Source of the DNA: a virus
IMG/VR virus record: IMGVR_UViG_3300020152_000019
Length of the DNA stretch: 64,000 nt
Strand: one strand, 5' to 3'
In this document: positions 7,856-64,000 of the stretch, one piece after another
Layout of the letters: each line of letters begins with the position of its first letter
Position numbering within the stretch: the first letter of the stretch is position 1
Translations under genes and position numbers: made by a program
Notes under the pieces: generated by a model
What the model saw: only the letters and a program-made list of their open reading frames with translations
Database searches by the model: none
Told to the model about the DNA's origin: nothing

Positions 7856-10750
7856 ATGCGTATTAATATAGTAAATCAAGGTGGTTACGGTAACGGTGGG
7901 TTTGATATTGCGGGTGCAACCTTAACGGGTCCGCTTATTCTTGCCGCTGATCCTACCACTGGTCTTGAAGCTGCGACTAAACAGTATGTTGATAATGCGG
8001 TTAATTCGTTAAACGCTGGTCACATTACGACTGGTATTTTACCTGTAGGAAGACTGCCTGCGTTTACTGGTGACTTAACTAGTACAGCCGGAAGTAATAG
8101 TTTAACTTTATCTAACTCTGGTGTTATTGCCGGTACTTATACTAAAGTTACAGTCGATGTTAAAGGTAGAATTACCAATGGTTTAGCTTTAACTGTAGCG
8201 GACATTCCTGATCTTAGTTGGAATAAAATTACTACTGGCAAGCCAACTACGTTAGCCGGGTTTGGTATTACAGATGGTGTTAAAAATACCACTGATTCTG
8301 TTACTGGTTATTTGACGGCACACGCTGCACCTACCAACGCAACTCATGCAGCTACTAAAGCGTATGTTGATAGTTTGTCGTCTGGTTCTGGTTCTTTATC
8401 AGTCGGTGATACGATTCGTCGTCCTAGCAGTGTAACTCCCACGGGTTTCTTACGTTGTAACGGCGGGCAATTTAGTAAAACGACTTACCCTGCTTTATAT
8501 AGCGTTTTAAGTTCGATGTATAGTTCTTATGCTAATATCGATTATACTAGTTACGCTGCTATGGGTAATGGTCAACCTTGGCGTCAACAGTTCGGTTTTA
8601 AAACTTCTGATGTAACTGATATAACTGGTTGGAGTATACACGGAACATTACCAACAGAAGCTATGGATGACGGTCAAGTCATTGTCACTAAAAACCGTGT
8701 TTATATATTAGGTAAAAATGCTAAAGCTACTGTACTTACCGCTCCTATCAACGCCGACGGTACGTTAGGTACATGGACCACAGGTACAAATTTACCAGTA
8801 ATTCTTTTTAAATCTCAAGTTGTCGTCACTAAGAATCGTGTGTATTTATTAGGCGGTAAGACTAGCGCTACAATGCTTACTAGTACTGTATATACCGCTC
8901 CTATCAACACAGACGGCACCTTAGGTACCTGGTCAGCTAGCCCTAATAGTTTACCTGGTAATTTAGCGCAGAGTCAAGCAGTAGTTACTAAGAATAGAGT
9001 CTATTTATTAGGTGGTGGTGTTAGTACTAGTAATCGTACCGCTAATATTTATTACGCGCCTATTAATAGTGATGGTACGTTAGGAGTCTGGAGTAGTGAG
9101 GGTAGTTTACCAACTTCTTTAATGGACTCTCACGCTGTTGTCACTAAAAACCGCGTATATCTGTTAGGTGGAAATAATGGTTCAATTATATCTACTATCT
9201 ATACTGCACCCATTTTCGATGATGGAGTAATAGGTTCTTGGAGTGTTGCTAGTAGCAGTTTACCAGGTCCTTTAGCAGATTCTCAAGTTATAGTCACTAA
9301 GAATAGAGTGTTTACGTTAGGCGGGCGTGATGGTTCTGATAGACATTCTAATGTCTACACCGCTCCTATCAATGCCGACGGTACGTTAGGTAGTTGGACT
9401 ACTGGTACACCTTTACATTCAACATTAGCTAATTCACAAGCTATTGTTACTAAAAATCGTGTTTATTTATTAAGCGGATTGGATGCTAGTGGTCTAGGAT
9501 CAACTACTAATATTTATACTGCATTGTTACCTGGTAACGAATCTTTTAACGATTACTCTAATTTCTATAACGGTACCATTAATAAGTTTGACGGCTCTGA
9601 CATTTCTGGAACTATATTGTTAAAAGACGGATATAGCGATAGTTTAGATTATACTCAATCTGGTAACGGTCAGCCGTGGCGTCAACAATATCAAATAAAC
9701 ACCCAACAAAGTGGTGATATAACCAATTGGGCTTTTAGCGATTATCCCTTACCTGCGACTATTACTGAATCTCATTCCATTGTTACTAAGAATAGAATTT
9801 ACTTATTAGGCGGATCTATCAACAGTGCTTATAGCAGTACTGGTTATACTGCAACTATTAACGCTGATGGTACATTAAATTCATGGAACAGTATCTCGTT
9901 ACCAGCTTCATTTAGCTATAGTCAAGCAATAGTGACTAAAAATAGAGTGTATTTATTAGGTGGAAATGTTAATGGTAGTTATTCTACTTCAGTTTACACA
10001 GCACCGATCAATAGTGACGGTACGTTAGGCGAATGGACTACCGGAACATCATTACCATTAACTATAGTATTTTCTCATGCTTTAGTAACTAAAAATAGAG
10101 CCTACTTACTAGGCGGTGAAATAAATGGCGCTAACTCGTCCGCAGTTTATACTGCTCCTATTGACGCAAACGGCATGTTAGGTAGTTGGACTAACACTAA
10201 TAATAATTTACCAGCATTTGTTAAAAGATCTCAACTTGTAGTTACGAAGAATAGAGTATACCTCATAGGTGGTTTAGTAAATGGTTCTAACTCATCTAAC
10301 GTTTATACCGCACCTATTAACTCTGACGGCACATTAGGTGTATGGGCTACGGCAAGTAATTTACCTGTCTCTTTATATGGTTGCCAATCTATAGTTACTC
10401 AAAATAAAGTATATTTGTTAGGTGGGTATGCTAATGGTTCCTATAGCTCTACCGTATATACAGCCCCGATTAATGCCGATGGAACTTTAGGTAATTGGAC
10501 TACTGGAACATCGTTACCAGGAAGTACAATGCTATCTCAAGCTGTAGTTGTAAAGAATAAAATATATTTAATAGGCGGAAATAATGGTTCGAATCTTGCT
10601 ACTATACATGTTGCGCCTATTTTAGGGGGTTTGAATGATTATTCTCCTTACTATAATGGCACTATAATTCCTGTTGAATCTGGTAATTTTAAATTACCGG
10701 ATACTACGTTAACTGATCCTGTTGGCATCTATACTTTTATCAAATACTAA
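7856..10750 (+). CDS. tail fibre/receptor-binding protein with collar domain and two six-bladed Kelch-like propellers
   Basis: AATKQYVD fibre repeats, GFLRCNG...YPALY collar motif, 12 (V/I)TKNRVYLLGG-type repeats, C-terminal FKLPD...FIKY. Confidence 0.85.
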   Translation: MRINIVNQGGYGNGGFDIAGATLTGPLILAADPTTGLEAATKQYVDNAVNSLNAGHITTGILPVGRLPAFTGDLTSTAGSNSLTLSNSGVIAGTYTKVTVDVKGRITNGLALTVADIPDLSWNKITTGKPTTLAGFGITDGVKNTTDSVTGYLTAHAAPTNATHAATKAYVDSLSSGSGSLSVGDTIRRPSSVTPTGFLRCNGGQFSKTTYPALYSVLSSMYSSYANIDYTSYAAMGNGQPWRQQFGFKTSDVTDITGWSIHGTLPTEAMDDGQVIVTKNRVYILGKNAKATVLTAPINADGTLGTWTTGTNLPVILFKSQVVVTKNRVYLLGGKTSATMLTSTVYTAPINTDGTLGTWSASPNSLPGNLAQSQAVVTKNRVYLLGGGVSTSNRTANIYYAPINSDGTLGVWSSEGSLPTSLMDSHAVVTKNRVYLLGGNNGSIISTIYTAPIFDDGVIGSWSVASSSLPGPLADSQVIVTKNRVFTLGGRDGSDRHSNVYTAPINADGTLGSWTTGTPLHSTLANSQAIVTKNRVYLLSGLDASGLGSTTNIYTALLPGNESFNDYSNFYNGTINKFDGSDISGTILLKDGYSDSLDYTQSGNGQPWRQQYQINTQQSGDITNWAFSDYPLPATITESHSIVTKNRIYLLGGSINSAYSSTGYTATINADGTLNSWNSISLPASFSYSQAIVTKNRVYLLGGNVNGSYSTSVYTAPINSDGTLGEWTTGTSLPLTIVFSHALVTKNRAYLLGGEINGANSSAVYTAPIDANGMLGSWTNTNNNLPAFVKRSQLVVTKNRVYLIGGLVNGSNSSNVYTAPINSDGTLGVWATASNLPVSLYGCQSIVTQNKVYLLGGYANGSYSSTVYTAPINADGTLGNWTTGTSLPGSTMLSQAVVVKNKIYLIGGNNGSNLATIHVAPILGGLNDYSPYYNGTIIPVESGNFKLPDTTLTDPVGIYTFIKY

Positions 10751-18171: not shown

Positions 18172-18623
18172 TAGTTGGAGATAAAGAAGTACCGAAACAT
18201 ATCTCTAACTTTCATTTTGGTTATTATATAAACTTTGACGAGTTTATAGAAGAGACCATTCGACATCTTAAAGGTAATAAAGATTATTTCTATAACAAGC
18301 AATTGTTTATAGAAATTTATGAAACCAAGTATCGGATCTGTGATCATCTCAACACAGTCAATCCTCTGTCTTCAGTGCAGTTTAATGAACCAGAAGACTA
18401 CTTTAGTAAAACTCTGTATGACGGATACTTAAATATTTTCATCTATAGAGAACTAGGAAAAAAACTTAATATGTCTTTTGATGATTTTATTAATAGACCT
18501 CGATACGAGATTGAGGCTATGATAAAGGTTGTCGAAGATGTAGATAAGAAAAAGATAAAAATGAATGAGGATATCGCTAAGGACTTAGAAAAAAATGTTC
18601 CTAAACCTCCTCCTACTGAATGA
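18123..18623 (+). CDS. -1 frameshift extension (GT-like); alternatively a TTG-started ORF 18303..18623
   Basis: frame open from 18090 to 18623 with no ATG before about 18470; entered by a -1 slip at T TTT TTT 18117-18123. Confidence 0.55.
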   Translation, partial: YANNFKNFEDPREGSVIVGDKEVPKHISNFHFGYYINFDEFIEETIRHLKGNKDYFYNKQLFIEIYETKYRICDHLNTVNPLSSVQFNEPEDYFSKTLYDGYLNIFIYRELGKKLNMSFDDFINRPRYEIEAMIKVVEDVDKKKIKMNEDIAKDLEKNVPKPPPTE

Positions 18624-18688
18624 TAATAAAGAGACAACCACAGTCTAGTGCTGTGGTTGTTTTCTATCTTTGTAAAGGAAAAAAACAC

Positions 18689-20752
18689 ATGGTACTAAAT
18701 AAACACCATGGCAATATACCTTTCGATGCTATCTATATCGGAAGAGGAAGTAAATGGGGTAATCCGTATGAAATGGGTAAAGACGGTAACCGCGATGAAG
18801 TATGTGATAAATATGATCGGTATTTAGAAGAACAAATAAAAACTGGTAAATTCACATTAGAAGAACTAGCCTCGTTACATAATAAAGATTTAGTATGTTA
18901 TTGTCATCCTAAGAGATGTCATGGACATTCATTAGAAAAAGCCGCGAAATGGGCTTGGAATAAATTAAATAAAGATAAAGAAACATTCTTTTTTCACACA
19001 AAAGTGAATGACGTGAATAAAGAATTGGAGCCTAAAATGTCTAAAGAAATCGTCAAAAAGGAAGTGCGGTTTGCATGGCATCTTCCTAGAAACGACTACA
19101 GGCCAGATCTACATTATGTTCGAGAAGATATTACCTACAAAGATGGTACTCAAGAACCTAATTGTTATTTCGCTGAAGATTTTGAACGTCCGGTGTACGT
19201 AACTAAAGAAAACTTTAGAAATCACTACGATAAAAAAGAGTTTGAATATCGAGATAAACTCAATCGTCAAATGACTACTCAATCGGATATGGAACGAGTA
19301 GTGCGTGGCATGCTTGGTCACAAAGAGAATGAAAGAGTCAAAGGAGAAGTAAAGAACTCTCCTTACGTGTACGCTTATGATGTTACCTCTACCTCTCTTA
19401 TCAAATATACCACGTTAAAGAAGAATGATTTTATTCAATCTCCCTATAGTGTAGCGGCATTCGATATTGAAACAAATCCCGATACCCAAGAAATTCTTTT
19501 GTCGACGGTCGCGTTTAAGAATAAAGTGCATACTTCTATTCTTAGAAAGTTTGTCAAGAATATCGCAGACGTAGAAGGTAGAATCAGAAAAGCAATTGCG
19601 CATTATCTGCCGGACTACGTAGGATTAGAATATAGCTTTGGTGTGTATGATTCTGAAGTCGATCTGTTAAAGGATAACTTTAGAGTCATTAATAAATGGA
19701 AGCCTGCGTTCTTAGCTATTTGGAACATGGATTTCGATATTCCCAAGATCTTAGAACGACTGAAGCATTATAACGTGAATCCGACCGATGTGTTATGCGA
19801 TCAAGCGATCCCAAGACCTTATCGGATGTGTCGTTATAAACAAGGTCAGAAGAAGAAGGTTACTGCGTCAGGGGTGGTAAAACCTATTAACCCCAGTCTG
19901 CAATGGCATACTTTAATTGTGACGGCTCCTTACTATGTAATTGATGCGATGTGTGTATATCGCCAGTTACGTATGGCAGGACAAGAAGAAACGAGTTATG
20001 CTCTTGATGCGATTCTAAAGAAAGAAGGCATTGGTGGTAAGTTAAAGTTTGAACCAGCCAATGGTTATTCTGGAATCAAATGGCACTTATTCTTACAAGA
20101 GAATTACCCGATTGAATATATCGTATATAATATCTACGACTGCTTAGGAATGCTAGAGTTAGATAAGAAGATTAAAGATCTTTCTTCTACTCTGCCTTCG
20201 TTTGCGGGTATTACTGATTTCCAGAAGTTTAGTAGTCAAGTACGGAAGATCTCTGACGCTGTGTTTCTGTTTGGTTTGGAAAAGAACCGTATCATTGGTA
20301 CAGTTCCCAAGATTGAAAAAACAGAAGAAGAACTGGTTGATGTACCTGACGAAGTATTAGACAATAATGGTGACGATGAAGAAGAAGACACTGAAGATAA
20401 ACCTAATAAATATAAGACATTAGATCTTAAAGGGTGGATTCAATTACTTCCTCAGAATCTATTATTACATGAAGGTCTACAGTGTTTAGAAGAATATCCC
20501 AACGCTGTGACTAATCTTAGAGGTTTAACTTGCGATCTGGATGCTACTTCTTCTTATCCGTCTTGCACTCTCGTTGGTAATGTATCGAAAGAGACGTGTG
20601 TAAACGAATTGATTCGTATCGATGGAATTGATGAAGAAACATTTAGAGAACAAAACCTAAGTATTTGTTTAGGCAATGCTAACATATTGGAATATTTCAG
20701 CGTGATGTTTGGGATGCCGAGTATGTCAGAAATAGATGCGTATTTAGATTAG
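18689..20752 (+). CDS. DUF4326 domain fused to the split family-B DNA polymerase exonuclease subunit
   Basis: IYIGRGSKWGNPY...LVCYCHPKRCHG; ExoI FDIET, ExoII WNMDFD, ExoIII YNIYD; PolB motif A DLDATSSYPS; internal GGAG-ATG at 19037. Confidence 0.8.
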   Translation: MVLNKHHGNIPFDAIYIGRGSKWGNPYEMGKDGNRDEVCDKYDRYLEEQIKTGKFTLEELASLHNKDLVCYCHPKRCHGHSLEKAAKWAWNKLNKDKETFFFHTKVNDVNKELEPKMSKEIVKKEVRFAWHLPRNDYRPDLHYVREDITYKDGTQEPNCYFAEDFERPVYVTKENFRNHYDKKEFEYRDKLNRQMTTQSDMERVVRGMLGHKENERVKGEVKNSPYVYAYDVTSTSLIKYTTLKKNDFIQSPYSVAAFDIETNPDTQEILLSTVAFKNKVHTSILRKFVKNIADVEGRIRKAIAHYLPDYVGLEYSFGVYDSEVDLLKDNFRVINKWKPAFLAIWNMDFDIPKILERLKHYNVNPTDVLCDQAIPRPYRMCRYKQGQKKKVTASGVVKPINPSLQWHTLIVTAPYYVIDAMCVYRQLRMAGQEETSYALDAILKKEGIGGKLKFEPANGYSGIKWHLFLQENYPIEYIVYNIYDCLGMLELDKKIKDLSSTLPSFAGITDFQKFSSQVRKISDAVFLFGLEKNRIIGTVPKIEKTEEELVDVPDEVLDNNGDDEEEDTEDKPNKYKTLDLKGWIQLLPQNLLLHEGLQCLEEYPNAVTNLRGLTCDLDATSSYPSCTLVGNVSKETCVNELIRIDGIDEETFREQNLSICLGNANILEYFSVMFGMPSMSEIDAYLD

Positions 20753-23795: not shown

Positions 23796-26678
23796 ATGAG
23801 ATTTAAGATTCTTAAACAGGGCGGATATAATAGCGGCGGTATATCTGAAACCGGTGGTAACATGTCCGGTCCGTTAGTGCTTGCTGCTAATCCTACCGAA
23901 AATTTACATGCCGCTTCGAAGTCCTATGTGGACACCGCGTTAGGTAATTTAAACGCAGCAAGTCTTACTAGTGGTCTTATTCCGGCTGAAAGATTACCGG
24001 CAATGACCGGCGACATTACCAATGTTGCTGGTAGTAATTCGTTTTCTTTATCTGATACTGGTATATCTCCTGGCACTTATGCTAAGGTTACTGTCAATGC
24101 AAAAGGTCGTATCACTAATGGTTACCCATTAGCCGAATCTGATATCCCTAATTTAGATTGGAGTAAGATCGTCACTGGTAAACCTACAACTGTCGCTGGT
24201 TATGGCATCACTGACGCTGTGCCTTCTACCGGTGGTACGTTAACTGGAGATTTAGTTGTTAATACCTCTCCCAGTAATCCATTACATATCGTCACTAAAG
24301 CTTATGTAGATTCTCTCGCGCAAAATAATACTAGTGGTATGAATGTGAATGTCGGTGATGTGGTGAGAAAAATCACTAACGTTACTCCTGCTGGTTTCTT
24401 GCGATGCAATGGTGGACAAGTCAGTAGAACTACTTATAGCGCTTTATTTAATGTTATAAAAGATCCATATACAGTTAAAGCTACAGTAGATTATACTAGC
24501 TATAGTGCAATGGGAGCTGGTACTCCTTGGAAACAACAATACGATATTAATTCTTTACAAAGCGGAGATATTACTGGCTGGACCACGAGTGGTTCGTTAG
24601 ATAGTAAAAATACTATTAACTCGTTAATAATTGTAACGAAAAATAAAGTCCATGCAATTGGCGGTAATGCTATGCCGGGTGGTTCGCTTCAAAATGTTGT
24701 TAATACAGCTACGATAAGGGACGACGGCACATTAACCGGATGGAGTGCTTCTACACCTTTCCCGTATACTATAAGTTATGGTCAAGCTGTAGTTACTAAA
24801 AATAGAGTCTATGTGTTTGGTGGTTTTATTAATGGATCTTACACTGCGACTGTATATACGGCTCTTATCAACGCTGACGGCACGTTAGGTGCTTGGACTA
24901 CCAGTGAAAATAGTTTACCAACACCTGTAGGTTTTTCTCAGATTGTCGTCACTAAAAATAGAGTATATAGTTTAGGCGGAGCTAATTCTAGCGGAAGTAT
25001 TACTGCTGTTTATACTGCTCCTATCAATTCTGATGGCACGTTAGGTGTATGGACTACTAGCTCTAATTCTTTACCTGTAGCGATAAGAAACTCTCAAGTT
25101 GTTGTTACTAAAAATAGAGCATACTTATTAGGCGGTGATGTAAATGGCACTAATTCTTCTGTCGTTTACACTGCGGTTATTAATAGTGACGGTACGTTAG
25201 GTGCTTGGTCTAACGCGAATAATAATTTACCAGGAGGTATCGCGTATTCACAAGCTATTGTCACTAAAAATAAAGTTTATATGTTGGGCGGACACAATGG
25301 TAGTCCCGTTTCTACGGTATACACTGCTCCTGTTAACGCTGATGGTACATTAGGAACATGGTCTACTAGTACCTCGTTACCTGCTGTTCTATCCAATTCC
25401 CAAGCTATTGTCACTAAAGGTCGGGTATACTTATTAGGTGGAAGTACTTCCGGAGAATCTAGTCCTACTATTTACACTGCTACTATAGCAGGAGGAACAG
25501 CAGATTATTCTATTTTCCATGATGGCACCATCAATAAGTTTGACGGCTCTGACATTTCTGGATCTACTATTTTATATGATACGTATGACGATTTTTCATT
25601 AAATACGCAACCTGGTTCTGGGCAACCTTGGAAAAATCAATATGAAATAAATTCATCTCACACTGGAGATACTTTATCTGCTTGGACTACGACTACTTCT
25701 TTACCAACAACGATAACTGAATCTAACGCTGTAGTAACTAAAAACAGAGTCTACTTATTAGGCGGACATGTAAGCAATAATCAATCTTCGGCTATTTATA
25801 CTGCTCCTATCAATGCCGATGGTACCTTAGGTACTTGGACTACAGCAGGTAATTTACCTATTAGTATATCTTCAACTCAAGCAATAGTCGCTAAAAACAG
25901 AGTTTACATTATAGGTCCTTCTACAATTTATTCTGCACCGATTAACACTGACGGTACTTTAGGTGTTTGGTCGTTAATTGGTAACGCACCAAGTAACGCT
26001 TACGATTCTCAAGTAGTAGTTATTAAAAATAGACTTTATATATTTAGCGGTCTTAATACCATTTCTTGTATCATTAATGATGATGGAACATTAAGTAATT
26101 GGACTACTGCTGCTACTTTTACTGATTCCATGTATTATGGACAAGCTATAGTTATAAAAAATAGAGTATATATTCTTGGAAGTGTGGATAGTTCTCTTTC
26201 TCTTCCAAGTAATAAAATTTATTACGCTCCTATTAATGCTGATGGTACTCTGGGCAATTGGACTTTATATAGTACGATGCCAACGAGATTATGCGAATTC
26301 CAGTTTTTTGTTAGTAAAAACACGTTATTTATCATTGGTGGATGTAGTCAATTTACTTATGGTTCTGCGAGAACTGATGTTTATTACTGCGCGATACAAA
26401 GCGATGGTAGTTTAGGAGCTTGGCTACCTGGTAATAGTTTACCAGTAGCAATGTTCGATCACCAATTGATCGCTACAAAAAATAGATTATATCTGTTAGG
26501 TGGCGCTGATACTGTTACGAATATTTCTACTGTTTACACTGCTACTATATCTGGAGGGTTAAATGATTATTCTCCTTACTATGATGGCACGATAACTGCT
26601 ATTGAACCTAATAACTTTAAATTGCCTGATTATAGCAATAAAGAACTTCCTGGTTCTTATAGTTACATCAAGTATTAA
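23796..26678 (+). CDS. second tail fibre paralog with collar domain and two Kelch-like propellers
   Basis: same architecture as 7856..10750; 12 blades; ends FKLPD...YIKY. Confidence 0.85.
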   Translation: MRFKILKQGGYNSGGISETGGNMSGPLVLAANPTENLHAASKSYVDTALGNLNAASLTSGLIPAERLPAMTGDITNVAGSNSFSLSDTGISPGTYAKVTVNAKGRITNGYPLAESDIPNLDWSKIVTGKPTTVAGYGITDAVPSTGGTLTGDLVVNTSPSNPLHIVTKAYVDSLAQNNTSGMNVNVGDVVRKITNVTPAGFLRCNGGQVSRTTYSALFNVIKDPYTVKATVDYTSYSAMGAGTPWKQQYDINSLQSGDITGWTTSGSLDSKNTINSLIIVTKNKVHAIGGNAMPGGSLQNVVNTATIRDDGTLTGWSASTPFPYTISYGQAVVTKNRVYVFGGFINGSYTATVYTALINADGTLGAWTTSENSLPTPVGFSQIVVTKNRVYSLGGANSSGSITAVYTAPINSDGTLGVWTTSSNSLPVAIRNSQVVVTKNRAYLLGGDVNGTNSSVVYTAVINSDGTLGAWSNANNNLPGGIAYSQAIVTKNKVYMLGGHNGSPVSTVYTAPVNADGTLGTWSTSTSLPAVLSNSQAIVTKGRVYLLGGSTSGESSPTIYTATIAGGTADYSIFHDGTINKFDGSDISGSTILYDTYDDFSLNTQPGSGQPWKNQYEINSSHTGDTLSAWTTTTSLPTTITESNAVVTKNRVYLLGGHVSNNQSSAIYTAPINADGTLGTWTTAGNLPISISSTQAIVAKNRVYIIGPSTIYSAPINTDGTLGVWSLIGNAPSNAYDSQVVVIKNRLYIFSGLNTISCIINDDGTLSNWTTAATFTDSMYYGQAIVIKNRVYILGSVDSSLSLPSNKIYYAPINADGTLGNWTLYSTMPTRLCEFQFFVSKNTLFIIGGCSQFTYGSARTDVYYCAIQSDGSLGAWLPGNSLPVAMFDHQLIATKNRLYLLGGADTVTNISTVYTATISGGLNDYSPYYDGTITAIEPNNFKLPDYSNKELPGSYSYIKY

Positions 26679-45242: not shown

Positions 45243-45332
45243 GGAGGTTTGGCCGAGCGGTCGATGGCACCGGTCTACTAAACCGGCATACGTGTAAACG
45301 TATCTAGGGTTCGAATCCCTAAGCCTCCGCCA
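45243..45332 (+). tRNA. trnS: tRNA-Ser(ACT)
   Basis: GGAGGTT/AGCCTCC acceptor stem, CCGGT-CTACTAA-ACCGG anticodon arm, long variable arm, G73, CCA. Confidence 0.9.
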
Positions 45333-56943: not shown

Positions 56944-58485
56944 ATGTTTAAAAATGTGAAAATTAAAACACGATTAATATTTGTATTGATGTTTCTATCT
57001 TTACAATTAATCGTAGGTGCGGTAATTGGACTTGCTGGAATTTATGCCGGTAACGAAGAGATGAAGTCTTTGTATGAAGATCGTCTTGTAGCGCTTGCTG
57101 ATTTAGACCAGTTGATTCGTCTTCTTAACATGAATCAACTTGATCTTGCAAAATCAGTGACTGATACTAATCCTGATGAAATAAAATCTATTCTTGCTTC
57201 AATTGAATCACGACGAGACATTTTCGAGAAAACGTGGAATGCTTACATGGCTACCACTTTAACTGCAGACGAAAAGCTCTTCGCAGACCAGTTGACTATC
57301 GAACGTCAAGTTTTCGTCAATGAAGGATTAAATCCTACCATTGAAGCAGTTCGTAAAGGTGACACTGCTGCTGCGATCGAACTCATCCACGGTAAAATGG
57401 AAAAGACCTTCGTACCGGTGCGTGAGTCTATCAATAAACTAATTAAATTGCAAACCGATGTCGCTCTTGAAAGTTATAACGCATCGCAAAGACAATACGT
57501 TTTAATTCGTAATTTTTGTATTTTCGGTGTAGCCGTTGGTTTGTTAATGGCTTTTGGTTCTTGTGTATGGTTAATTAAATCCATTACCACGCCGATAAAT
57601 AAAGCTATTGATATTGCTAAAGGCGTTGCGAATGGTGATCTCACACAACAAATCACTGTTGACTCCACCAATGAAATGGGTGAGTTAATGAAAGCTCTAT
57701 CTGATATGAATAACGGTTTGCAACAAATCGTACTTCAAGTCAGAGGAGGCACCCAGCTTATCAATACCGCGTCTAATGAAATTGCCAGTGGTAACGCAGA
57801 TCTTTCTTCTCGCACTGAACAACAAGCAGCTTCATTAGAAGAGACAGCATCGTCGCTTGAAGAACTTACTTCTACCGTTCATCAAAACGCAGATAACGCT
57901 AAACAAGCGAGTTCTATGTCATTAACAGCCGCAACAGTTGTTAGTGAAGGTGGACAAGCAGTTGAGCGGTTAATTAATACAATGTCTGATATTAGAACGA
58001 GTTCTAACAAGATTACTGAAATCATTGGTGTGATTGATGGTATCGCTTTTCAAACCAATATCTTAGCTTTAAACGCAGCAGTTGAAGCTGCTCGCGCCGG
58101 AGAACAAGGTAGAGGTTTTGCGGTAGTTGCAACAGAAGTCAGAAGTTTAGCGCAACGTTCAGCCGCAGCAGCAAAAGAAATTAAAGAACTCATTAATCGT
58201 TCTGTAATGAATGTGGCTACCGGAAGTGATCAAGTTGAACATGTAGGTACAAAGATTAAAGACGCAGTAGCAAGCATTCAACGAGTCAATGATATCATGA
58301 CTGAAATTGCAGCAGCTAGTGCAGAGCAATCGACTGGCATTGATCAAATCAATACTGCTGTTTCACAAATGGATCAGGTAACTCAACAAAACGCAGCTTT
58401 AGTTGAACAAGCAGCAGCAGCGGCGGAAAGTATGAAAGAACAAGCTAATCAGTTAGCTCAAATCGTAAGTACTTTCAAAGTTTGA
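56944..58485 (+). CDS. methyl-accepting chemotaxis protein (full length)
   Basis: TM1, four-helix sensor, TM2, HAMP, signalling hairpin IAFQTNILALNAAVEAARAGEQGRGFAVVATEVRSLA, methylation helices. Confidence 0.97.
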   Translation: MFKNVKIKTRLIFVLMFLSLQLIVGAVIGLAGIYAGNEEMKSLYEDRLVALADLDQLIRLLNMNQLDLAKSVTDTNPDEIKSILASIESRRDIFEKTWNAYMATTLTADEKLFADQLTIERQVFVNEGLNPTIEAVRKGDTAAAIELIHGKMEKTFVPVRESINKLIKLQTDVALESYNASQRQYVLIRNFCIFGVAVGLLMAFGSCVWLIKSITTPINKAIDIAKGVANGDLTQQITVDSTNEMGELMKALSDMNNGLQQIVLQVRGGTQLINTASNEIASGNADLSSRTEQQAASLEETASSLEELTSTVHQNADNAKQASSMSLTAATVVSEGGQAVERLINTMSDIRTSSNKITEIIGVIDGIAFQTNILALNAAVEAARAGEQGRGFAVVATEVRSLAQRSAAAAKEIKELINRSVMNVATGSDQVEHVGTKIKDAVASIQRVNDIMTEIAAASAEQSTGIDQINTAVSQMDQVTQQNAALVEQAAAAAESMKEQANQLAQIVSTFKV

Positions 58486-60134: not shown

Positions 60135-60458
60135 ATGATTTATACGTTCGCTAATCGCACTGTAGGGCTTGTTGGGCAATTTGAGACGCCAATAGAACTT
60201 ATGCAATTGGCGATCTTTTATCTGGGCGGTAGATGTTTTGTTGTCTATAATAAAATAATCATTCCTGATGTGATTGTTATCGGGAAGCACACATCCAGTA
60301 AAGCCATCGAAGCTATCGAAAAACATTTCATGAATGGACAAATGTCAAGCATTCCTGTTTATGAAGCTAAGATTAACGACCACATGCCAGACGATAAAAT
60401 GTTTAGTGATATCCTCGATCGTGTAAAAGAAGAACTTCCTTGGTGTATTGGTTATTGA
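60135..60458 (+). CDS. possible stand-alone BRCT-like domain
   Basis: VGLVGQF...YLGG...DVIVIG...KAIEA...IPVY pattern. Confidence 0.45.
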   Translation: MIYTFANRTVGLVGQFETPIELMQLAIFYLGGRCFVVYNKIIIPDVIVIGKHTSSKAIEAIEKHFMNGQMSSIPVYEAKINDHMPDDKMFSDILDRVKEELPWCIGY

Positions 60459-60519
60459 AAAAATACTAGAAATCCATATATAGTGAACAGAACGCAACCT
60501 GCATTTGAAGTAAACACAA

Positions 60520-60530
60520 TTGCATATATA
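60520..60530 (+). promoter_or_regulatory. TTGCATATATA promoter-like motif
   Basis: one-mismatch copy with TTGAA and GTGA, heads the RNA island. Confidence 0.6.
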
Positions 60531-60572
60531 TTAAGTGATATAAGCATATGTGTAATTCCTATAGGAGATTAA

Positions 60573-60743
60573 ATGTCGACTGAAGAATTGAATGCTGAAA
60601 ATGCAAAGATTGCAGCAGACGCTAAGGAAGCACACAAAATCCTTTCTGAGCTTTGCTACAATCATGACGAGAATGCAACGCTTACTGATTTAGCAAATCG
60701 TGTGCGTAACATTGTAGTCGCTTCAACAGGTTGCGATCACTAG
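60573..60743 (+). CDS. hypothetical 56-aa protein
   Basis: AGGAG RBS; MSTEELNAEN...GCDH. Confidence 0.65.
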   Translation: MSTEELNAENAKIAADAKEAHKILSELCYNHDENATLTDLANRVRNIVVASTGCDH

Positions 60744-60752
60744 CAAGAATTT

Positions 60753-61343
60753 GCCCGAGTGGTGAAATTGGTAGACACAGCGGACTTATTGAAAAATTGA
60801 GCACCTACGAAAAATGCGGAAGTAAAACTTCAAACTAACCTTCCCGATCAAAAGGGAAAACTTGTAAGAAGGAATTTCGCAACCGAAAGGCGTATAAACA
60901 TTCTTCGGAATGGGTGAATCTCTTCAAATTCGGCGAACACTAAAAAAGCGATGAAGTCAGAGACTTCGCATAGTCGCATTAGCTCGGTGATACCGTCGAG
61001 CTAATTGATGTCAACGCCGAGCCAAGCCTGATAAGATCCTTTAAAGTATGGGTAAACTTCAGGAAGGTGTAGAGACTGTAAGGAGAGGATCTAAGTAGAG
61101 AGGGAGCAGGAATAGGTACCTGTTCACGGCAAGCAATTGCGTGTAATCAAATCGCCTTATCAAAACCCGATCTATACGATCAAGACACAGTCCAGACCAC
61201 GAACAGCGTATTCCATAAGTAGCTTCGGTCTTAACCTAAGCGAAATAGATGGTTGATCTCTGGCGTCGAAAGACGAAGTGGTAAGAAAATCCGCCGCTTA
61301 CCCGAGAGGGGGCGTACCGGTTCGATTCCGGTTTCGGGCACCA
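60753..61343 (+). tRNA. trnL: tRNA-Leu(TAA) split by a group I intron (exons 60753-60787 and 61286-61343)
   Basis: GCCCGAG/TTCGGGC acceptor stem; the splice rebuilds GCGGA-CTTAAAA-TCCGC; long variable arm; CCA. Confidence 0.92.
60788..61285 (+). mobile_element. group I intron (IC3-like, trnL(UAA) type), no ORF
   Basis: P/Q/R/S elements (CAAATTCGGCG, CGCCGAGCCAA, GAAGGTGTAGAGACTG, AAGACACAGTCC), P3 CTCTTC/GGAGAG, P9.0 ACCAC/GTGGT, terminal G after the U34 exon. Confidence 0.9.
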
Positions 61344-61345
61344 GA

Positions 61346-61990
61346 AAAGGTTCGGTAGTGAACCTCCCCTCTAAGCTTCGGCTTAGAGACAAGCCTCCTT
61401 TGGCAACTACCAAAAAGGCTAGGCAGGTAGCCTCCTCTCTGAATTTAGGTTTAGAGCCAAGTCCACTTGGACACCTGCCAGATTCACGTCGTGAGACGTT
61501 TATACTTAGACACCACCGTTGAAAGACGGTAAAGATCCAAAGCTTGCGTGCAGGGGCGGCCTGCTTCAAGAGCCATTTGAAATGCCGTAAAACCACCTGT
61601 AACTGGACTAAGTCCTAAGAGGGTGTAACTAATCCGGTAAGGCAACGGTAGTACTTGAATTAAGAATTAAAACGTGGATCGGTGAATCTTCTCAAAGTCG
61701 GTATGACTAAAAAAGCGATGAGGCTAGAGGTCTCTTAAGTTGCATTAGCTCGGTGTTATCGTCGAGCTAATTGATGTCAAAATCGAGCCAAGCTTAATGA
61801 TTCTATTAGATAACTTTCCTACCGGTGTGTTATTTGATAGTTTCTATTATGAAGGTGTAAGACTAATGGGAAGTACTGTTACTACTAAACTGACAGGAAG
61901 GGGAAGTTGGTAACAGTAAAAGGTCTAACCCATGAGCATAAATGAATCCTCCTGAGAAAAGTGTTCTGTTTATGTTTGTGGTTCTATTCT
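61346..61990 (+). ncRNA. free-standing group-I-derived structured RNA with a multi-hairpin 5' domain
   Basis: 61681-61930 is paralogous to the intron core with compensatory P3/P4 changes; 5' region rich in UUCG/GNRA hairpins; no exons found. Confidence 0.65.
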
Positions 61991-62006
61991 AAGAGAATAA
62001 GGAAAT

Positions 62007-62045
62007 ACCCTCAGGGAGCAATCCCTGAGGTTTCTAAATTTTTCC
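62007..62045 (+). terminator. intrinsic terminator-like hairpin
   Basis: CCTCAGGGA-GCAA-TCCCTGAGG followed by a T-rich tract. Confidence 0.65.
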
Positions 62046-62182
62046 TTGAGTGCGGTTGAACTGTATTTACGATTGTTCTTAGCTTTGCATTCGTGAGAGT
62101 GTAAGGATATTGTAAATGCGGTTGTTATTACCTCCGCATTCGAGAAGAATCAAGAGAGTAACATCTCTTGTATTATTGTCGT

Positions 62183-62515
62183 ATGGAGAGGGTAAAACTT
62201 CTCTGAGACTTTCAAGGTGAAAGGCTTCTGGACGCGGGTTCGATTCCCGCCTCGTCCAATAAGTACATTCTAACGAGTGTGGTTATTGGGCGAGTACTGG
62301 TTTCGACAGGGGTTAAGTAGGTGAGAAGGAACGACACGTCCATGAGCGCGGACGTTAATCTGGGTTCAATAAAGTAAATGCTGCTAATGATAGCCATTTC
62401 CGCGCTGCTGCCTAAAAACAGCTAACGGATGAGGTCACTAATCTAGTTCGCTAGGTTAGGTCGTCTACTCTCCCGATAATGACGGAGTCCTTATACCCCA
62501 AACAGGTAGACGACA
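62183..62515 (+). ncRNA. ssrA: circularly permuted two-piece tmRNA (acceptor piece ends 62258; coding piece starts 62288)
   Basis: T-arm GCGGG-TTCGATT-CCCGC plus CTCGTCC-A precedes GGGCGAG-TACTGGTTTCGAC; G3-U70 pair; tag ORF 62380-62415 (AANDSHFRAAA*); outer ends approximate. Confidence 0.9.
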
Positions 62516-62521
62516 CACGAC

Positions 62522-62598
62522 GTGCCCATAGCTCAGTAGGATAGAGCAACAGCCTTCTAAGCTGTGGGTCGGGGGTTCGAATCCCTCTGGGCGCGCCA
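62522..62598 (+). tRNA. trnR: tRNA-Arg(TCT)
   Basis: GTGCCCA/TGGGCGC acceptor stem, ACAGC-CTTCTAA-GCTGT anticodon arm, CCA. Confidence 0.95.
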
Positions 62599-62606
62599 TT
62601 GTTTCT

Positions 62607-62662
62607 GTAGTAAACTGAACTCAATCGAGTCAGAATTTTATAACTGTTATCTCGTTAAGGAG
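62607..62662 (+). repeat. leader repeat copy 1
   Basis: GTAGTAAACTGAACTCAATCGAGTCAG...AACTG...CTCGTTAAGG. Confidence 0.8.
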
Positions 62663-62668
62663 ATTAAT

Positions 62669-62874: not shown

Positions 62875-62930
62875 GTAGTAAACTGAACTCAATAGAGTCA
62901 GTCTTTTTTAAACTGTGTTCTCGTTAAGGG
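62875..62930 (+). repeat. leader repeat copy 2
   Basis: GTAGTAAACTGAACTCAATAGAGTCAG...AACTG...CTCGTTAAGG. Confidence 0.8.
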
Positions 62931-62939
62931 GAAATTAAA

Positions 62940-63305
62940 GTGTCAAATCTTCATATTGTAAAAACTGAATCTACTAAGCTTCAGTCTCGTATTTATAATG
63001 TAATCAAAGTTCTAGCTGGTTTAAATAAAACCACAATTATCAGGAAAGAAATTGTTGATTACTCTCGCTTCACTATCGAACATCCTCAGGCTTATGTTCC
63101 TGATTTTGACTTCGAGTGGTGCGACTCTAAAAAGCATTATCGAGTGTATATCCATCAAGCATTTACTAACGAAGCTAAACGCCGTCGTGGTTACTGCATT
63201 GCTGTGATTAACGGACCACTCGCTGCTACCGAATTCGTGCAGATGTATAAGTTCTTACATAAGCACCGCGCCAATAACAAAGATTCTATGCAAGAAGCAG
63301 CGTAA
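62940..63305 (+). CDS. hypothetical protein
   Basis: 121 aa, GTG start after AAGGGG. Confidence 0.75.
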   Translation: MSNLHIVKTESTKLQSRIYNVIKVLAGLNKTTIIRKEIVDYSRFTIEHPQAYVPDFDFEWCDSKKHYRVYIHQAFTNEAKRRRGYCIAVINGPLAATEFVQMYKFLHKHRANNKDSMQEAA

Positions 63306-63307
63306 AG

Positions 63308-63810
63308 AATACCCTCTGCAATACACAGAGTATGGATGACAAACTCATATTACCGGGGTAAGCGCAAGCAGCCGTCGGATAATGGTGATAAGGTCTACCC
63401 AATGTAGGAGCCGTGATAGTTAGACATTGATCTATACAGATTCGTGTCTACCAAGCGTCTAGGACATCGCCTTCGCACGACAAAGCGAACAAGCCTTGTT
63501 AAACGGTCTAGATAGATTCTTTACTGACTCAACCAGTTTATGAATGACGCTTTTGCTGCTGTTGAACTTATCGTGCTGAAACTGATCATTTCAGCGGTGG
63601 AGAAAACCTTTTATTCGGTAGACCTTGTTCGAGGAGTATAAGGTGGACATAGAAGCTAGATAAGAGCCGGGACCGCACTGACTGGCGGAGTGTCAAGTCG
63701 TCTGATACCAATTTGATTACGGGGTAGCTATATCCCTGACGGCTTAATAGAAGTGGAAGGAAACTTTTGCCTGAAGGCAGTTGGGAGTGGTATCCTAATT
63801 GTCTTTGGAG
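63308..63810 (+). ncRNA. unidentified large structured RNA
   Basis: GC-richer gene-free region with nested long-range helices (63370/63744, 63390/63626, 63453/63552); ends approximate. Confidence 0.6.
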
Positions 63811-63832
63811 AAAAGTTTTTAATAATAAAGAA

Positions 63833-63871
63833 ACTAGAGAAAGGAGTAACATCCTTTCTCTAGGGTATTCT
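63833..63871 (+). terminator. intrinsic terminator
   Basis: CTAGAGAAAGGA/TCCTTTCTCTAG then a T tract. Confidence 0.75.
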
Positions 63872-63930
63872 TTTTTTGCTGTACCTGAGTCACGGCGGGT
63901 CTCCGTGGCATTTTTAATAGGAGTTTCTAA

Positions 63931-64000
63931 ATGAAACTGAAATTCACGAAAGACGCACAAGCAGTTATCGATGAAATTGCTAAACTTCCTACTCAAACTT
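63931..64000 (+). CDS. partial CDS running off the window
   Basis: AGGAG RBS, MKLKFTKDAQ... Confidence 0.6.
   Translation, partial: MKLKFTKDAQAVIDEIAKLPTQT

Follow-up and report, generated by a model that had tools for sequence, protein, structure and literature searches.

The window, i.e., the whole stretch of 64,000 nt analyzed here, comes from a jumbo-phage context, as deduced from phiKZ internal head protein and tail collar domains. Besides group I introns and a permuted tmRNA, it harbors a split tRNA-Leu and one or more further structured stretches that are unassigned. One group I intron is located within the tRNA-Leu (60788–61287). Downstream, the permuted tmRNA and a tRNA-Arg precede a gene for a basic protein of 121 aa (pI 9.5), which is followed by the RNA described here and its terminator (Table 1).

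Table 1. Features of the stable-RNA island and elements of the predicted RNA fold (PK, pseudoknot; J, joiner; A1–A6, homolog alignments)
Feature	Position	Strand	Description and basis
Permuted tmRNA	62154–62506	+	Rfam and ARAGORN
tRNA-Arg(TCT)	62522–62598	+	Rfam and ARAGORN; same RNA island in relatives
121-aa basic protein gene	62940–63305	+	Homologs P0001–P0007; syntenic context
H1	63314–63330	+	5-bp hairpin CTCTG/CAGAG, 7-nt loop; 3/5 pairs with two-sided change, 100% of cells paired
PK-C 5′ strand	63322–63325	+	UACA in H1 loop; partner 63403–63406; 3/4 pairs compensatory
H2	63337–63396	+	Three-tiered long hairpin; contains AGCCGTCGG
J2/3	63397–63417	+	Near-invariant purine-rich joiner AATGTAGGAGCCGTGA; invariant columns in A1, A2, A6
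H3	63421–63450	+	Window-specific hairpin; MFE and per-sequence folds
H4a and H4 5′ strands	63453–63463	+	AAGCG (H4a), TCTAGG (H4, 63458–63463)
H4 3′ strand	63507–63512	+	TCTAGA; 3/6 pairs compensatory
H5	63516–63545	+	Hairpin; 4/10 pairs compensatory; loop TCAAC (63529–63533) is PK-A 5′ strand
H4a 3′ strand	63548–63552	+	CGCTT; closes three-way junction H4a/H4/H5
PK-A 3′ strand	63561–63565	+	GTTGA; partner is H5 loop
H6	63574–63596	+	8-bp hairpin; 6/8 stem pairs compensatory
J6/7	63597–63603	+	GTGGAGA; invariant columns in A4
H7	63604–63645	+	Hairpin region, variable in length and sequence; contains GGTAGACCTT; A4 gaps
J7/8	63646–63672	+	Conserved joiner GAC.TAGAAGCTAGA...AGCC.GGA; invariant columns in A4
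H8	63673–63688	+	4-bp hairpin, variable 8-nt loop; 100% of cells paired, 1 compensatory pair
H9	63690–63708	+	6-bp hairpin; 5/6 stem pairs compensatory; loop GTCGTC (63697–63702) is PK-B 5′ strand
H10	63721–63736	+	6-bp hairpin, loop GCTA; 2 compensatory pairs
PK-B 3′ strand	63738–63743	+	GACGGC, part of CTGACGGCT; 3/6 pairs compensatory
J10/11	63744–63760	+	Near-invariant purine-rich joiner TTAATAGAAGTGGAAGG; invariant columns in A4
H11	63761–63818	+	Long 3′ hairpin; lower stem AAACTTTT/AAAAGTTT; 16-bp upper stem, G-U-rich
Intrinsic terminator	63834–63875	+	12-bp stem, 6-nt loop, then GGTATTCTTTTTTT (T-run)

A predicted non-coding RNA gene downstream of the 121-aa protein gene

Searching with a homolog profile (nhmmer) placed the conserved core of the RNA at 63308–63824 on the + strand (517 nt) and revealed it as the sole copy in the window (E = 1e-126, no second match). 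A preliminary description of this DNA had reported a gene-free, GC-richer stretch with a highly structured RNA of about 500 nt closed by a terminator, and all of these points could be confirmed. The longest stop-free run in any frame comprised 79 codons in the window and 23–62 codons in four homologs, all six frames being broken in the window and these homologs alike, and the GC content of the RNA stretch amounted to 0.43–0.45 versus 0.32–0.38 in the flanking small genes. Folding of the + strand resulted in a minimum free energy (MFE) of −179.8 kcal/mol (z = −4.09), with none of 100 shuffled sequences being as good, compared to z = −2.78 for the − strand, and the homologs revealed strong covariation. 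The hairpin and T-run of an intrinsic terminator were identified directly behind the conserved core. A second terminator-like hairpin was detected at 63889–63909, ahead of the ATG of the next gene at 63932. A promoter for the RNA was looked for as well, and none was recognized. Because of the many conserved G-U pairs, found in H11, and the T-run of the terminator, we regard the + strand as the transcribed strand. An ORF of 33 codons on this strand (63540–63641) was rejected as a gene, given that it overlaps the covarying helix H6 and that the substitutions separating it from its homologs mostly affect first and second positions of codons. Altogether, we regard the region 63308–63875 (+) as a real non-coding RNA gene of roughly 520–570 nt with about a dozen helices and three pseudoknots in its predicted fold.

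Covariation and architecture of the fold

The core was defined on homolog alignments A2, A4, and A6. RNAalifold predicted 67 pairs for alignment A2, 36 of them compensatory. In this tiny and entirely metagenomic family, sequence kinship can inflate shuffle-based statistics, and the stronger control with slid partners resulted in 35–47% of cells paired versus 96.8% for the hand-curated structure of the 3′ two-thirds, and in 0–2 pairs changed on both sides versus 26. For the 5′ third, 98.9% of cells were paired (21–42% with slid partners) and 14 pairs changed on both sides (0–2 in the slid controls), so that both sub-alignments together displayed 40 two-sided pair changes. Compensatory changes supporting a common fold were present across the homologs, and each of the three pseudoknots contained two-sided ones. 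Covariation supports 11 helices and three pseudoknots in the predicted fold, though the covarying "pseudoknots" could equally be contacts between molecules.

As shown by covariation in the aligned sequences, the predicted fold consists of three modules linked by near-invariant purine-rich single strands, namely a 5′ module (H1, H2, and PK-C), a central module (H3, the three-way junction H4a/H4/H5 with PK-A, then H6 and the variable H7), and a 3′ module (H8, H9, and H10 with PK-B, followed by the long hairpin H11). The RNA also contains four conserved SD-like strings (UAAGG, AGGAG, GGAG, AAGGA). The helices had been described before as fully nested, which does not hold given the three pseudoknots. 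Overall, the hairpins of that earlier fold stood, while two of its three long-range helices were not conserved and the pseudoknots had been missed.

In the 5′ module, the 3′ strand of PK-C (TGTA, 63403–63406) is located inside J2/3, and the pairing UACA/UGUA of most sequences is replaced by UGUA/UACA in homolog L026 and CACA/UGUG in L009. H2 was deduced from RNAalifold pairs 39–54/102–118 of A2, which displayed many two-sided changes, and the same hairpin was obtained from single-sequence folds in six of seven sequences; the pair counts for the 5′ third included its outer and middle stems. Its tip is GCAA in the window and GAAA in most relatives, and its internal loop AAAC/GATAAGG is conserved. 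The long-range helix formerly drawn between AGCCGTCGG and CTGACGGCT was not conserved, each arm having a better partner: on the 5′ side, the sequence closes the local hairpin H2, and on the 3′ side, GACGGC (63738–63743) pairs with the H9 loop GTCGTC (63697–63702), forming the covarying pseudoknot PK-B.

In the central module, H3 had already been recognized as a hairpin and is real in the MFE fold of this phage, whereas relatives carry different hairpins at its site, namely two, one of them with the tip C(UACG)G or C(UUCG)G. The former helix AAGCGTC/GACGCTT was retained in five of its seven base pairs as H4a (AAGCG 63453–63457/CGCTT 63548–63552), the last two bases belonging to H4 instead; H4a displayed one-sided variation only (G-C, G-U, A-U). 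PK-A was paired in 100% of cells with one compensatory pair and one wobble change, the variants being UCAAC/GUUGA in the window, CCAAC/GUUGG in L006, and CCGAC/GUUGG in L026. H6, known from the preliminary description as the hairpin at 63575–63595, was upheld by its compensatory stem pairs, and its 7-nt loop CTGATCA (63582–63588), invariant in six sequences, contains the palindrome TGATCA. With about 11 loops in the RNA, it is not unusual for one of them to contain a 6-nt palindrome by chance, the expected frequency being roughly 3% per 7-nt loop by our estimate. The local hairpins of H7 differ in each homolog, with pairing to GATAAGG in only some of them. A helix AAGGTCTACC/GGTAGACCTT, also proposed earlier, is strong in the window, its −20.9 kcal/mol being equaled by 0.3% of shuffles, but is not kept across homologs: L006 has a weaker version, L027 uses another register, and L004 and L026 lack it. 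It is lineage-specific at best.

In the 3′ module, PK-B is formed by GUCGUC/GACGGC in the window, GUCGAC/GUCGAU in L006, GUUAAC/GUUAAC in L026, GUCuGAC/GUCGAC in L027, and GUCGG/UCGAC in L004. For H11, the tip of which corresponds to the hairpin noted before at 63778–63801, 20 pairs were counted, four of them compensatory, with 93% of cells paired. A long-range closing helix GUAGGAG/CU(U/C)(U/C)UGC, which competes with the lower stem of H11, was rejected with G-C to G-U changes only; unlike it, the lower stem has a true compensatory pair. Further candidates rejected were a group II domain-5-like hairpin starting GAGCCGU (which the window lacks), a tRNA-like reading of 63667–63745 (acceptor pairing not conserved), and an AGCUA/UAGCU pairing of J7/8 with the H10 loop (broken in L026).

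Homologs and family assignment

Collecting homologs and analyzing their covariation had been put forward as a check of the RNA, and homologs were indeed found. At the DNA level, the RNA is conserved at seven related phage loci from metagenomes; the homologs, recovered from metagenome contigs, comprise five distinct sequences of full or near-full length and two partial ones (nhmmer E-values of 1e-47 to 1e-20 for a single sequence, down to 1e-202 for profiles). Source samples are ENA ERZ27252484, SRR22387779, SRR29397367, SRR11108994, SRR5008235, and JGI 3300048672. Their gene order is permuted tmRNA, tRNA, a gene for a 122-aa protein, and RNA, with extra ORFs between gene and RNA in two relatives. 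The tmRNA and tRNA lie at most 1 kb upstream of the RNA in the window, L004, L006, L009, and L026, so that the tRNA-cluster context noted in the preliminary description is kept in relatives. Altogether, the RNA is kept beside a tmRNA/tRNA cluster in a few uncultivated jumbo phages. The tight linkage to the 121-aa ORF also fits a ribonucleoprotein or cis-acting role.

No DNA match to the RNA was obtained in phage, plasmid, E. coli, IMG/VR, or GTDB collections; this includes E. coli genomes and plasmids as well as GenBank phages, where BLASTn revealed no match to either the RNA of the window or its L006 version. In pattern scans, the 16-mer AATGTAGGAGCCGTGA resulted in 11 loci in IMG/VR, all of them chance matches without nhmmer support, a 19-mer from J10/11 in none, a two-block pattern in four loci of JGI metagenomes, all chance and coding, and structure-aware degenerate patterns in none in either IMG/VR or GTDB genomes. 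Using the 160-aa protein encoded downstream in the window as a query recovered only itself and no new homologs, and the 180-aa protein downstream in L006 led to nine clusters and contig L031 without the upstream region. Distant loci of the 121-aa protein family (L001–L003 and L028–L030) revealed no RNA by nhmmer or covariance model R1, with the downstream DNA of L028–L030 being too short to count as absence. Gene-free gaps in L028 and L029, considered as RNA copies, were identified as group I introns located within tRNA genes.

The preliminary description could not assign the RNA to a family, and this was borne out by cmscan against Rfam 15 (4227 models), which resulted in nothing at gathering threshold in the RNA stretch and nothing credible at E ≤ 10 on 63200–64000 or on homologs L005, L008, L026, and L027. 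As controls, the neighboring tmRNA and tRNAs were found, as was the group I intron (60814–61211, 37.9 bits, E = 1.2e-7). A literature search revealed no described jumbo-phage RNA of such kind. The best reading is that of a new family of large ornate phage RNA, akin to ROOL and GOLLD and a member of neither.

ROOL and GOLLD are phage or prophage RNAs "often near tRNA islands", with multiple pseudoknots and assembly via kissing loops, which include conserved palindromes, e.g., GAUC and AGCU (PMC12286853). ROOL, like the RNA of this study, comprises roughly 500–600 nt, is phage-encoded, often by tRNA islands, and harbors multiple pseudoknots; it has no known protein partner, and its contacts are mediated by conserved loops (PMC12286853). 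The location typical of ROOL, i.e., in a phage or prophage near tRNA genes, was also found here. However, the Rfam model of ROOL was not matched at E ≤ 10, and the host clade consists of uncultivated jumbo phages with a betaproteobacterial-type tmRNA. GOLLD likewise is encoded by phages close to tRNAs and combines a conserved part with variable regions, many helices, and pseudoknots. Its palindromic kissing loops, e.g., GAUC and AGCU, belong to a solved assembly; the RNA of this study has CUGAUCA as its invariant loop. Moreover, GOLLD possesses about 800 nt and 27 stems, compared to 11 helices in another arrangement here, and its covariance model, including the conserved 3′ domain, was not matched.

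Proposed role and competing explanations

As the best explanation, and one we hold to be reasonably probable, the locus is a stand-alone gene for a large structured RNA outside Rfam, acting in trans as a particle or scaffold. Since the stop codon of the 121-aa ORF lies 9 nt ahead of H1 and no promoter was recognized, transcription of the + strand would most likely occur by read-through from this ORF or the conserved cassette before it, and the transcript would end at the intrinsic terminator. The folded RNA may then serve as a particle or scaffold in trans during infection, as proposed for ROOL and GOLLD, in a role that would be linked to the module of tmRNA and tRNAs with which the phage provides translation and stable RNAs. 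For a contact between molecules, the H6 loop CUGAUCA is the best candidate, either as a symmetric kissing loop for self-assembly or as a docking site for a partner, because it is invariant while six of the eight stem pairs covary.

More tentatively, the RNA might represent a previously undescribed large catalytic or self-assembling class specific to this jumbo-phage clade, i.e., a ribozyme of the island or a third RNA-only assembly. GOLLD and ROOL were recently shown to be RNA-only nanocages, and OLE an RNA-only dimer. A third assembly of this type would be built via the invariant palindromic loop, and some of the covarying "pseudoknots" would be intermolecular.

Taken by itself, a new ribozyme that processes transcripts of the stable-RNA island (pre-tRNA, two-piece tmRNA) or cleaves or ligates itself appears rather unlikely. 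Large size, three pseudoknots, and near-invariant joiners are equally expected of a ribozyme, such traits being typical of catalytic RNAs in bacteria and phages (RNase P, group I and II introns). The RNA is accompanied by substrates of RNase P (tmRNA, tRNAs) as well as by group I introns, and a permuted tmRNA requires additional processing. Bacterial RNase P RNA in particular resembles it in size, pseudoknots, conserved joiners, and the genomic link to RNase P substrates. However, neither the Rfam ribozyme models nor, specifically, those of RNase P classes A and B matched at E ≤ 10, and no conserved cleavage-site signature or host-gene exons were recognized. The CR-I and CR-V motifs of RNase P are missing as well, partial look-alikes in the window, e.g., ACGGCTTAAT, not being conserved in the homologs (A2).

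A shade less probable than such a ribozyme is a ribonucleoprotein composed of this RNA as its RNA subunit and the co-transcribed basic protein of 121 aa. Gene and RNA are neighbors in seven of seven loci, with 9 nt between the stop codon and H1 in the window and the RNA almost abutting the stop codon in L004 and L027, and the protein combines a pI of 9.3–9.6 with a confidently predicted alpha-beta-alpha sandwich fold (AF2 model, pLDDT 89.7). On the other hand, an ORF separates gene and RNA in L005 (70 aa) and L009 (157 aa), the distribution of the protein family, with 85 clusters at 50% identity, greatly exceeds that of the RNA, and the distant family member in L001–L003, the only distant one with enough flanking sequence, has no RNA within about 3 kb downstream. 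Furthermore, the protein was matched to no known RNA-binding family or fold: searches resulted in nothing in Pfam or PHROGs, no Foldseek match in the PDB at E ≤ 0.001, and no tblastn match in GenBank phages. VIA-align revealed generic alpha-beta sandwich matches only, namely Med17 of Mediator (Z 8–9) and frataxin/CyaY (Z 6–7), a range that the tool calls common.

We consider it very unlikely that the RNA acts in cis, as part of the 3′ UTR of the 121-aa mRNA and in the stability, localization, or regulation of the latter, rather than in trans. It does lie directly 3′ of an ORF at every locus, no promoter of its own was recognized, and one terminator closes ORF and RNA together. Yet known bacterial 3′ UTR elements need far less than 11 helices and three covarying pseudoknots in a core of 517 nt, and in L005 and L009 the RNA follows another ORF and is therefore not tied to one mRNA.

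Just as improbable is membership in a known class from which the RNA, as a relic or otherwise, has diverged too far for covariance models to reach; group I introns (in degenerate form), GOLLD, ROOL, RNase P, and a chain of pseudoknots as in tmRNA are the candidates. Group I introns are plentiful in these islands (tRNA-Leu of the window, L028, L029) and of similar size, and the order H9/PK-B/H10/H11, read as a topology of a pseudoknot with an inserted hairpin and a subsequent 3′ hairpin, recalls their P3′/P7/P8/P9. Nevertheless, the group I model (RF00028) was not matched at E ≤ 10, no exons and no P4–P6 domain were found, in particular no equivalent between the H9 5′ strand and PK-B, and no host gene is interrupted: the RNA lies between the stop codon at 63305 and the terminator at 63834, flanked by an intact 121-aa ORF, full-length homologs of which carry no insert, and a separate downstream gene. 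The serial H-type pseudoknots recall tmRNA, of which a genuine permuted copy is present in the same island, but the RNA lacks both a tRNA-like domain and a tag reading frame and was matched by neither ARAGORN nor Rfam. In total, none of the 4227 models matched at E ≤ 10 in five sequences, although the true intron, tmRNA, and tRNAs were detected. Finally, we give hardly any credence to the absence of an RNA gene, i.e., to a decayed protein gene or conserved non-transcribed DNA, since the 136-aa ORF of the − strand overlapping this region (63586–63996) crosses the terminators and the start of the next gene and is not retained in the homologs, where all frames are broken, and since substitutions are compensatory within helices and not limited to third codon positions.

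To our knowledge, only a handful of intricately folded RNA classes of more than 500 nt exist in bacteria and phages. Some of them act as ribozymes or form the core of ribonucleoproteins (rRNA, RNase P, group I and II introns, tmRNA), and the others are ornate RNAs that await an explanation (OLE, GOLLD, ROOL). A new, unrelated family with the same genomic habit, i.e., location in a phage tRNA/tmRNA island, would offer an independent case on the role of such RNAs, and its compact size of about 520 nt makes it directly accessible to structural and biochemical analysis. In jumbo phages, stable-RNA islands thus contain more than tRNAs.

Genomic context of the RNA island

The window derives from an uncultivated jumbo phage. 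Domain searches matched its large ORFs to phiKZ-like internal head proteins, tail-collar/Kelch fibres and a PolB exonuclease, and only scraps of similarity to GenBank phages were found. Protein look-up located the same locus on ENA contig k141_498264 (L025; 234,290 bp), which ends at the point equivalent to window position 61547, the window running on for 61.5 kb further upstream; thus, the window stems either from another assembly or from a circularly permuted record of this phage, whose size is about 234 kb. It also encodes a chemotaxis protein and a tRNA-Ser with A34, which is unusual in a bacterial-type tRNA-Ser (see table).

The final 3.3 kb form an island of stable-RNA genes. Here, a group I intron of about 500 nt interrupts the anticodon loop of a tRNA-Leu(UAA)-like gene, an arrangement shared with the tRNA-Leu of cyanobacteria and plastids. 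This split gene was detected neither by ARAGORN nor by Rfam at gathering threshold; a permissive Rfam run over 60400-62300 placed RF00028 on 60814-61211 (37.9 bits, E = 1.2e-7), and joining the exons near 60787/61286 gave tRNA-Leu(taa) in ARAGORN. The second intron-like copy had no Rfam match; direct repeats linking the two (60910-61032 and 61678-61798) are 83-88% identical. The gene-free stretch between them (MFE z = -3.28, no Rfam match at E<=10) may be a second structured RNA outside known families. Group I introns seem to be common in the RNA islands of such phages: gene-free gaps beside remoter relatives of the 121-aa protein (L028:1157-1947 and L029:1-766) hold introns of the same type, with strings including GAATCTTCTCAAA..CGG and AAAGGTGTA.(A/G)GAC, and since the L028 gap terminates in tRNA-like sequence, this intron probably lies within a tRNA gene.

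Next come two small ORFs (67 and 121 aa). A copy of one intergenic cassette stands ahead of each and consists of a hairpin (ACTGAACTCAAT.GAGTCAG), a T-run and a conserved AACTGT..TCTCGTTAAGG including the ribosome-binding site. The cassette probably combines a terminator with a phage promoter or leader behind it.

Features of the window, the RNA island and the candidate RNA
Feature	Position	Remarks
Paralogous pair	7856-10750, 23796-26678	~960 aa each; phage tail-collar domain, Kelch-repeat propellers; likely tail fibres
710-aa protein	18620-20752	DUF4326 and family-B DNA polymerase exonuclease domains
tRNA-Ser	45243-45332	anticodon ACT (ARAGORN), A at position 34
Methyl-accepting chemotaxis protein	56944-58485	full-length, jumbo-phage-encoded; TarH, 4HB_MCP, HAMP, MCPsignal
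tRNA-Leu(UAA)-like gene with group I intron	60752-61343	
Gene-free stretch	61344-61660	~50% GC; between tRNA-Leu 3' exon and second intron-like copy
Partial group-I-like copy	61650-61920	core-like string GAAGGTGTAAGACTAATGGG
Permuted (two-piece) tmRNA	62154-62506	betaproteobacterial type; tag AANDSHFRAAA; Rfam, ARAGORN
tRNA-Arg	62522-62598	Rfam, ARAGORN
Intergenic cassettes	62607-62663, 62875-62932	ahead of 67-aa and 121-aa ORFs
Candidate RNA, conserved core	63308-63824 (+)	
H1	63314-63330	5' third
PK-C	63322-63325 / 63403-63406	H1 loop UACA with UGUA in invariant joiner AAUGUAGGAGCCGUGA
H2	63337-63396	long hairpin; GNRA tip in window and most relatives
H4a, H4		junction helices, counted with 5' third
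H5		loop pairs with downstream segment (PK-A)
H6		6/8 pairs compensatory; loop CUGAUCA invariant
H7, H8, H9, H10		in this order, 3' two-thirds; H7 variable
PK-B		H9 loop with segment 3' of H10
H11		long hairpin, 3' two-thirds
Terminator	63834-63875 (+)	intrinsic, textbook type; 12-bp hairpin, then T-run

A conserved candidate RNA with a covarying fold

Behind the 121-aa ORF lies a conserved non-coding plus-strand element of about 517 nt with 11 helices and three pseudoknots (PK-A to PK-C), closed by a terminator and situated in the tmRNA/tRNA island of a small jumbo-phage clade. No plausible ORF was found in 63308-63880, and all frames were broken here and in the four homologs examined. The GC content is 0.43-0.45 compared to 0.32-0.38 immediately upstream. 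Folding of the plus strand gave an MFE of -179.8 kcal/mol (z = -4.09), equalled by none of 100 shuffles (minus strand: z = -2.78), and conserved G-U pairs in H6, H9, H10 and H11 identify the plus strand as the RNA.

Direct DNA searches revealed no homologs. The 121-aa protein has six close relatives in metagenome assemblies (56-61% identity in alignment), on whose contigs the same location is occupied by a conserved non-coding block (0.5-0.6 kb). Full or near-full copies were identified in L004, L006 (identical to L008), L007, L026 and L027, partial ones in L005 and L009, with profile nhmmer E-values of 1e-202 to 1e-16. The family comprises five distinct full or near-full sequences and two fragments, all metagenomic. 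Among full-length copies, divergence is greatest for that of the window, an advantage in covariation analysis. A covariance model (R1) of the best-conserved 105 nt found one copy per phage locus and none in loci of remoter protein relatives. The loci share one gene order: a permuted tmRNA comes first, in some cases followed by an HNH endonuclease gene, and next are tRNA-Thr or tRNA-Arg, the 122-aa gene (the counterpart of the 121-aa ORF) and the RNA; in L006 the tmRNA is likewise permuted and in the same position as in the window. L006 (1497-1586), L007 and L008 carry one more hairpin, about 15 bp long and including two G-U pairs, in the interval from the 122-aa gene to H1; judged from the sequence alignment, it may be a lineage-specific 5' extension of the RNA.

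RNAalifold on eight sequences yielded 67 pairs, and compensatory changes occur in 36. This fold was refined by hand and checked by explicit pair counts against the same helices with one strand slid. In the 5' third, 98.9% of cells were paired (slid: 21-42%) with 14 two-sided pair changes (slid: 0-2); for the 3' two-thirds the values were 96.8% (35-47%) and 26 (0-2). The two strands of each pseudoknot vary in concert: PK-A is UCAAC/GUUGA in the window and CCAAC/GUUGG or CCGAC/GUUGG in relatives, PK-C changes to UGUA/UACA in L026 and CACA/UGUG in L009, and PK-B occurs as GUCGUC/GACGGC, GUCGAC/GUCGAU, GUUAAC/GUUAAC, GUCuGAC/GUCGAC and GUCGG/UCGAC.

The three hairpins of the preliminary description were all present, though the one at 63421-63450 belongs to this phage, relatives carrying other hairpins there, one UNCG-capped. 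Five pairs of its AAGCGTC/GACGCTT helix are correct (H4a), while the last two bases go to the covarying H4. Its pairing AGCCGTCGG/CTGACGGCT is not conserved: at -16.8 kcal/mol in the window, it drops to between -1.9 and -9.7 with irregular pairing elsewhere, and its arms have covarying alternative partners in H2 and PK-B. The perfect 10-bp helix AAGGTCTACC/GGTAGACCTT extends to 13 bp in the window (-20.9 kcal/mol) but is not general: L006 has a weaker version, L027 pairs in a different register, and in L004 and L026 it does not outscore shuffles. Connecting the invariant GAUAAGG of the H2 internal loop with variable H7, it is at best a lineage-specific contact.

Possible roles and relation to known families

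A stable RNA would be produced from the candidate gene, probably through transcription running on from the 121-aa ORF, since H1 starts 9 nt past its stop codon and no promoter could be recognised. This RNA would act in trans as a folded particle. Alternatively, such a fold could represent a new ribozyme. The 121-aa protein could also be its partner in an RNP, a possibility raised by gene position. This protein is basic (pI ~9.5), with a predicted helix, five-stranded sheet, helix fold (pLDDT 89.7); it belongs to no Pfam or PHROG family, and comparison with PDB structures revealed no informative likeness. Its family is wide (85 clusters at 50% identity), and in the most distant member with long flanks, from a chimallin-encoding phage (L001-L003), tRNA-Met and not this RNA comes next, which marks the protein as an inhabitant of phage tRNA islands. 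A cis-acting 3' UTR element would fit the short distance to the stop codon; in L005 and L009, ORFs of 70 and 157 aa intervene, showing that the RNA is not welded to the 121/122-aa gene.

As to a known class diverged beyond recognition, Rfam 15 gave no match in the candidate stretch at gathering thresholds, and at E<=10 only meaningless short matches there and no family match in four homologs, in agreement with the earlier failure to assign a family. The library includes ROOL, GOLLD, OLE, HEARO, raiA, RNase P, tmRNA, SRP, 6S and group I/II introns; as positive controls, tmRNA and tRNAs were recovered at gathering and the neighbouring group I intron at E = 1e-7 (permissive, 60400-62300). The candidate has no tRNA-like domain, no P4-P6 equivalent and no interrupted host gene around it. 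Strings resembling RNase P CR-IV/V and group II domain 5 in the window were not conserved in homologs. The RNA was absent from GenBank phages, PLSDB plasmids and complete E. coli genomes and, by pattern scan, from IMG/VR and GTDB genomes. Neither Rfam 15 nor the literature covered by the searches describes this family.

Among known RNAs, ROOL and GOLLD come closest in kind. Both are phage RNAs of unknown function, "often near tRNA islands" and rich in pseudoknots, which build RNA-only nanocages via kissing loops, some palindromic (GAUC, AGCU), and A-minor contacts (PMC12286853). By analogy, the invariant palindromic H6 loop, the purine-rich invariant joiners and the variable internal region (H7, distal H4) would fit this picture. 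Since covariation could not distinguish intra- from intermolecular pairing in ROOL (PMC12286853), PK-A, PK-B and PK-C could be bridges between molecules. Altogether, we place the candidate, as a new family, among the ornate phage RNAs of tRNA islands, a kind that is known and loosely defined, with a fair chance of being something mechanistically new.
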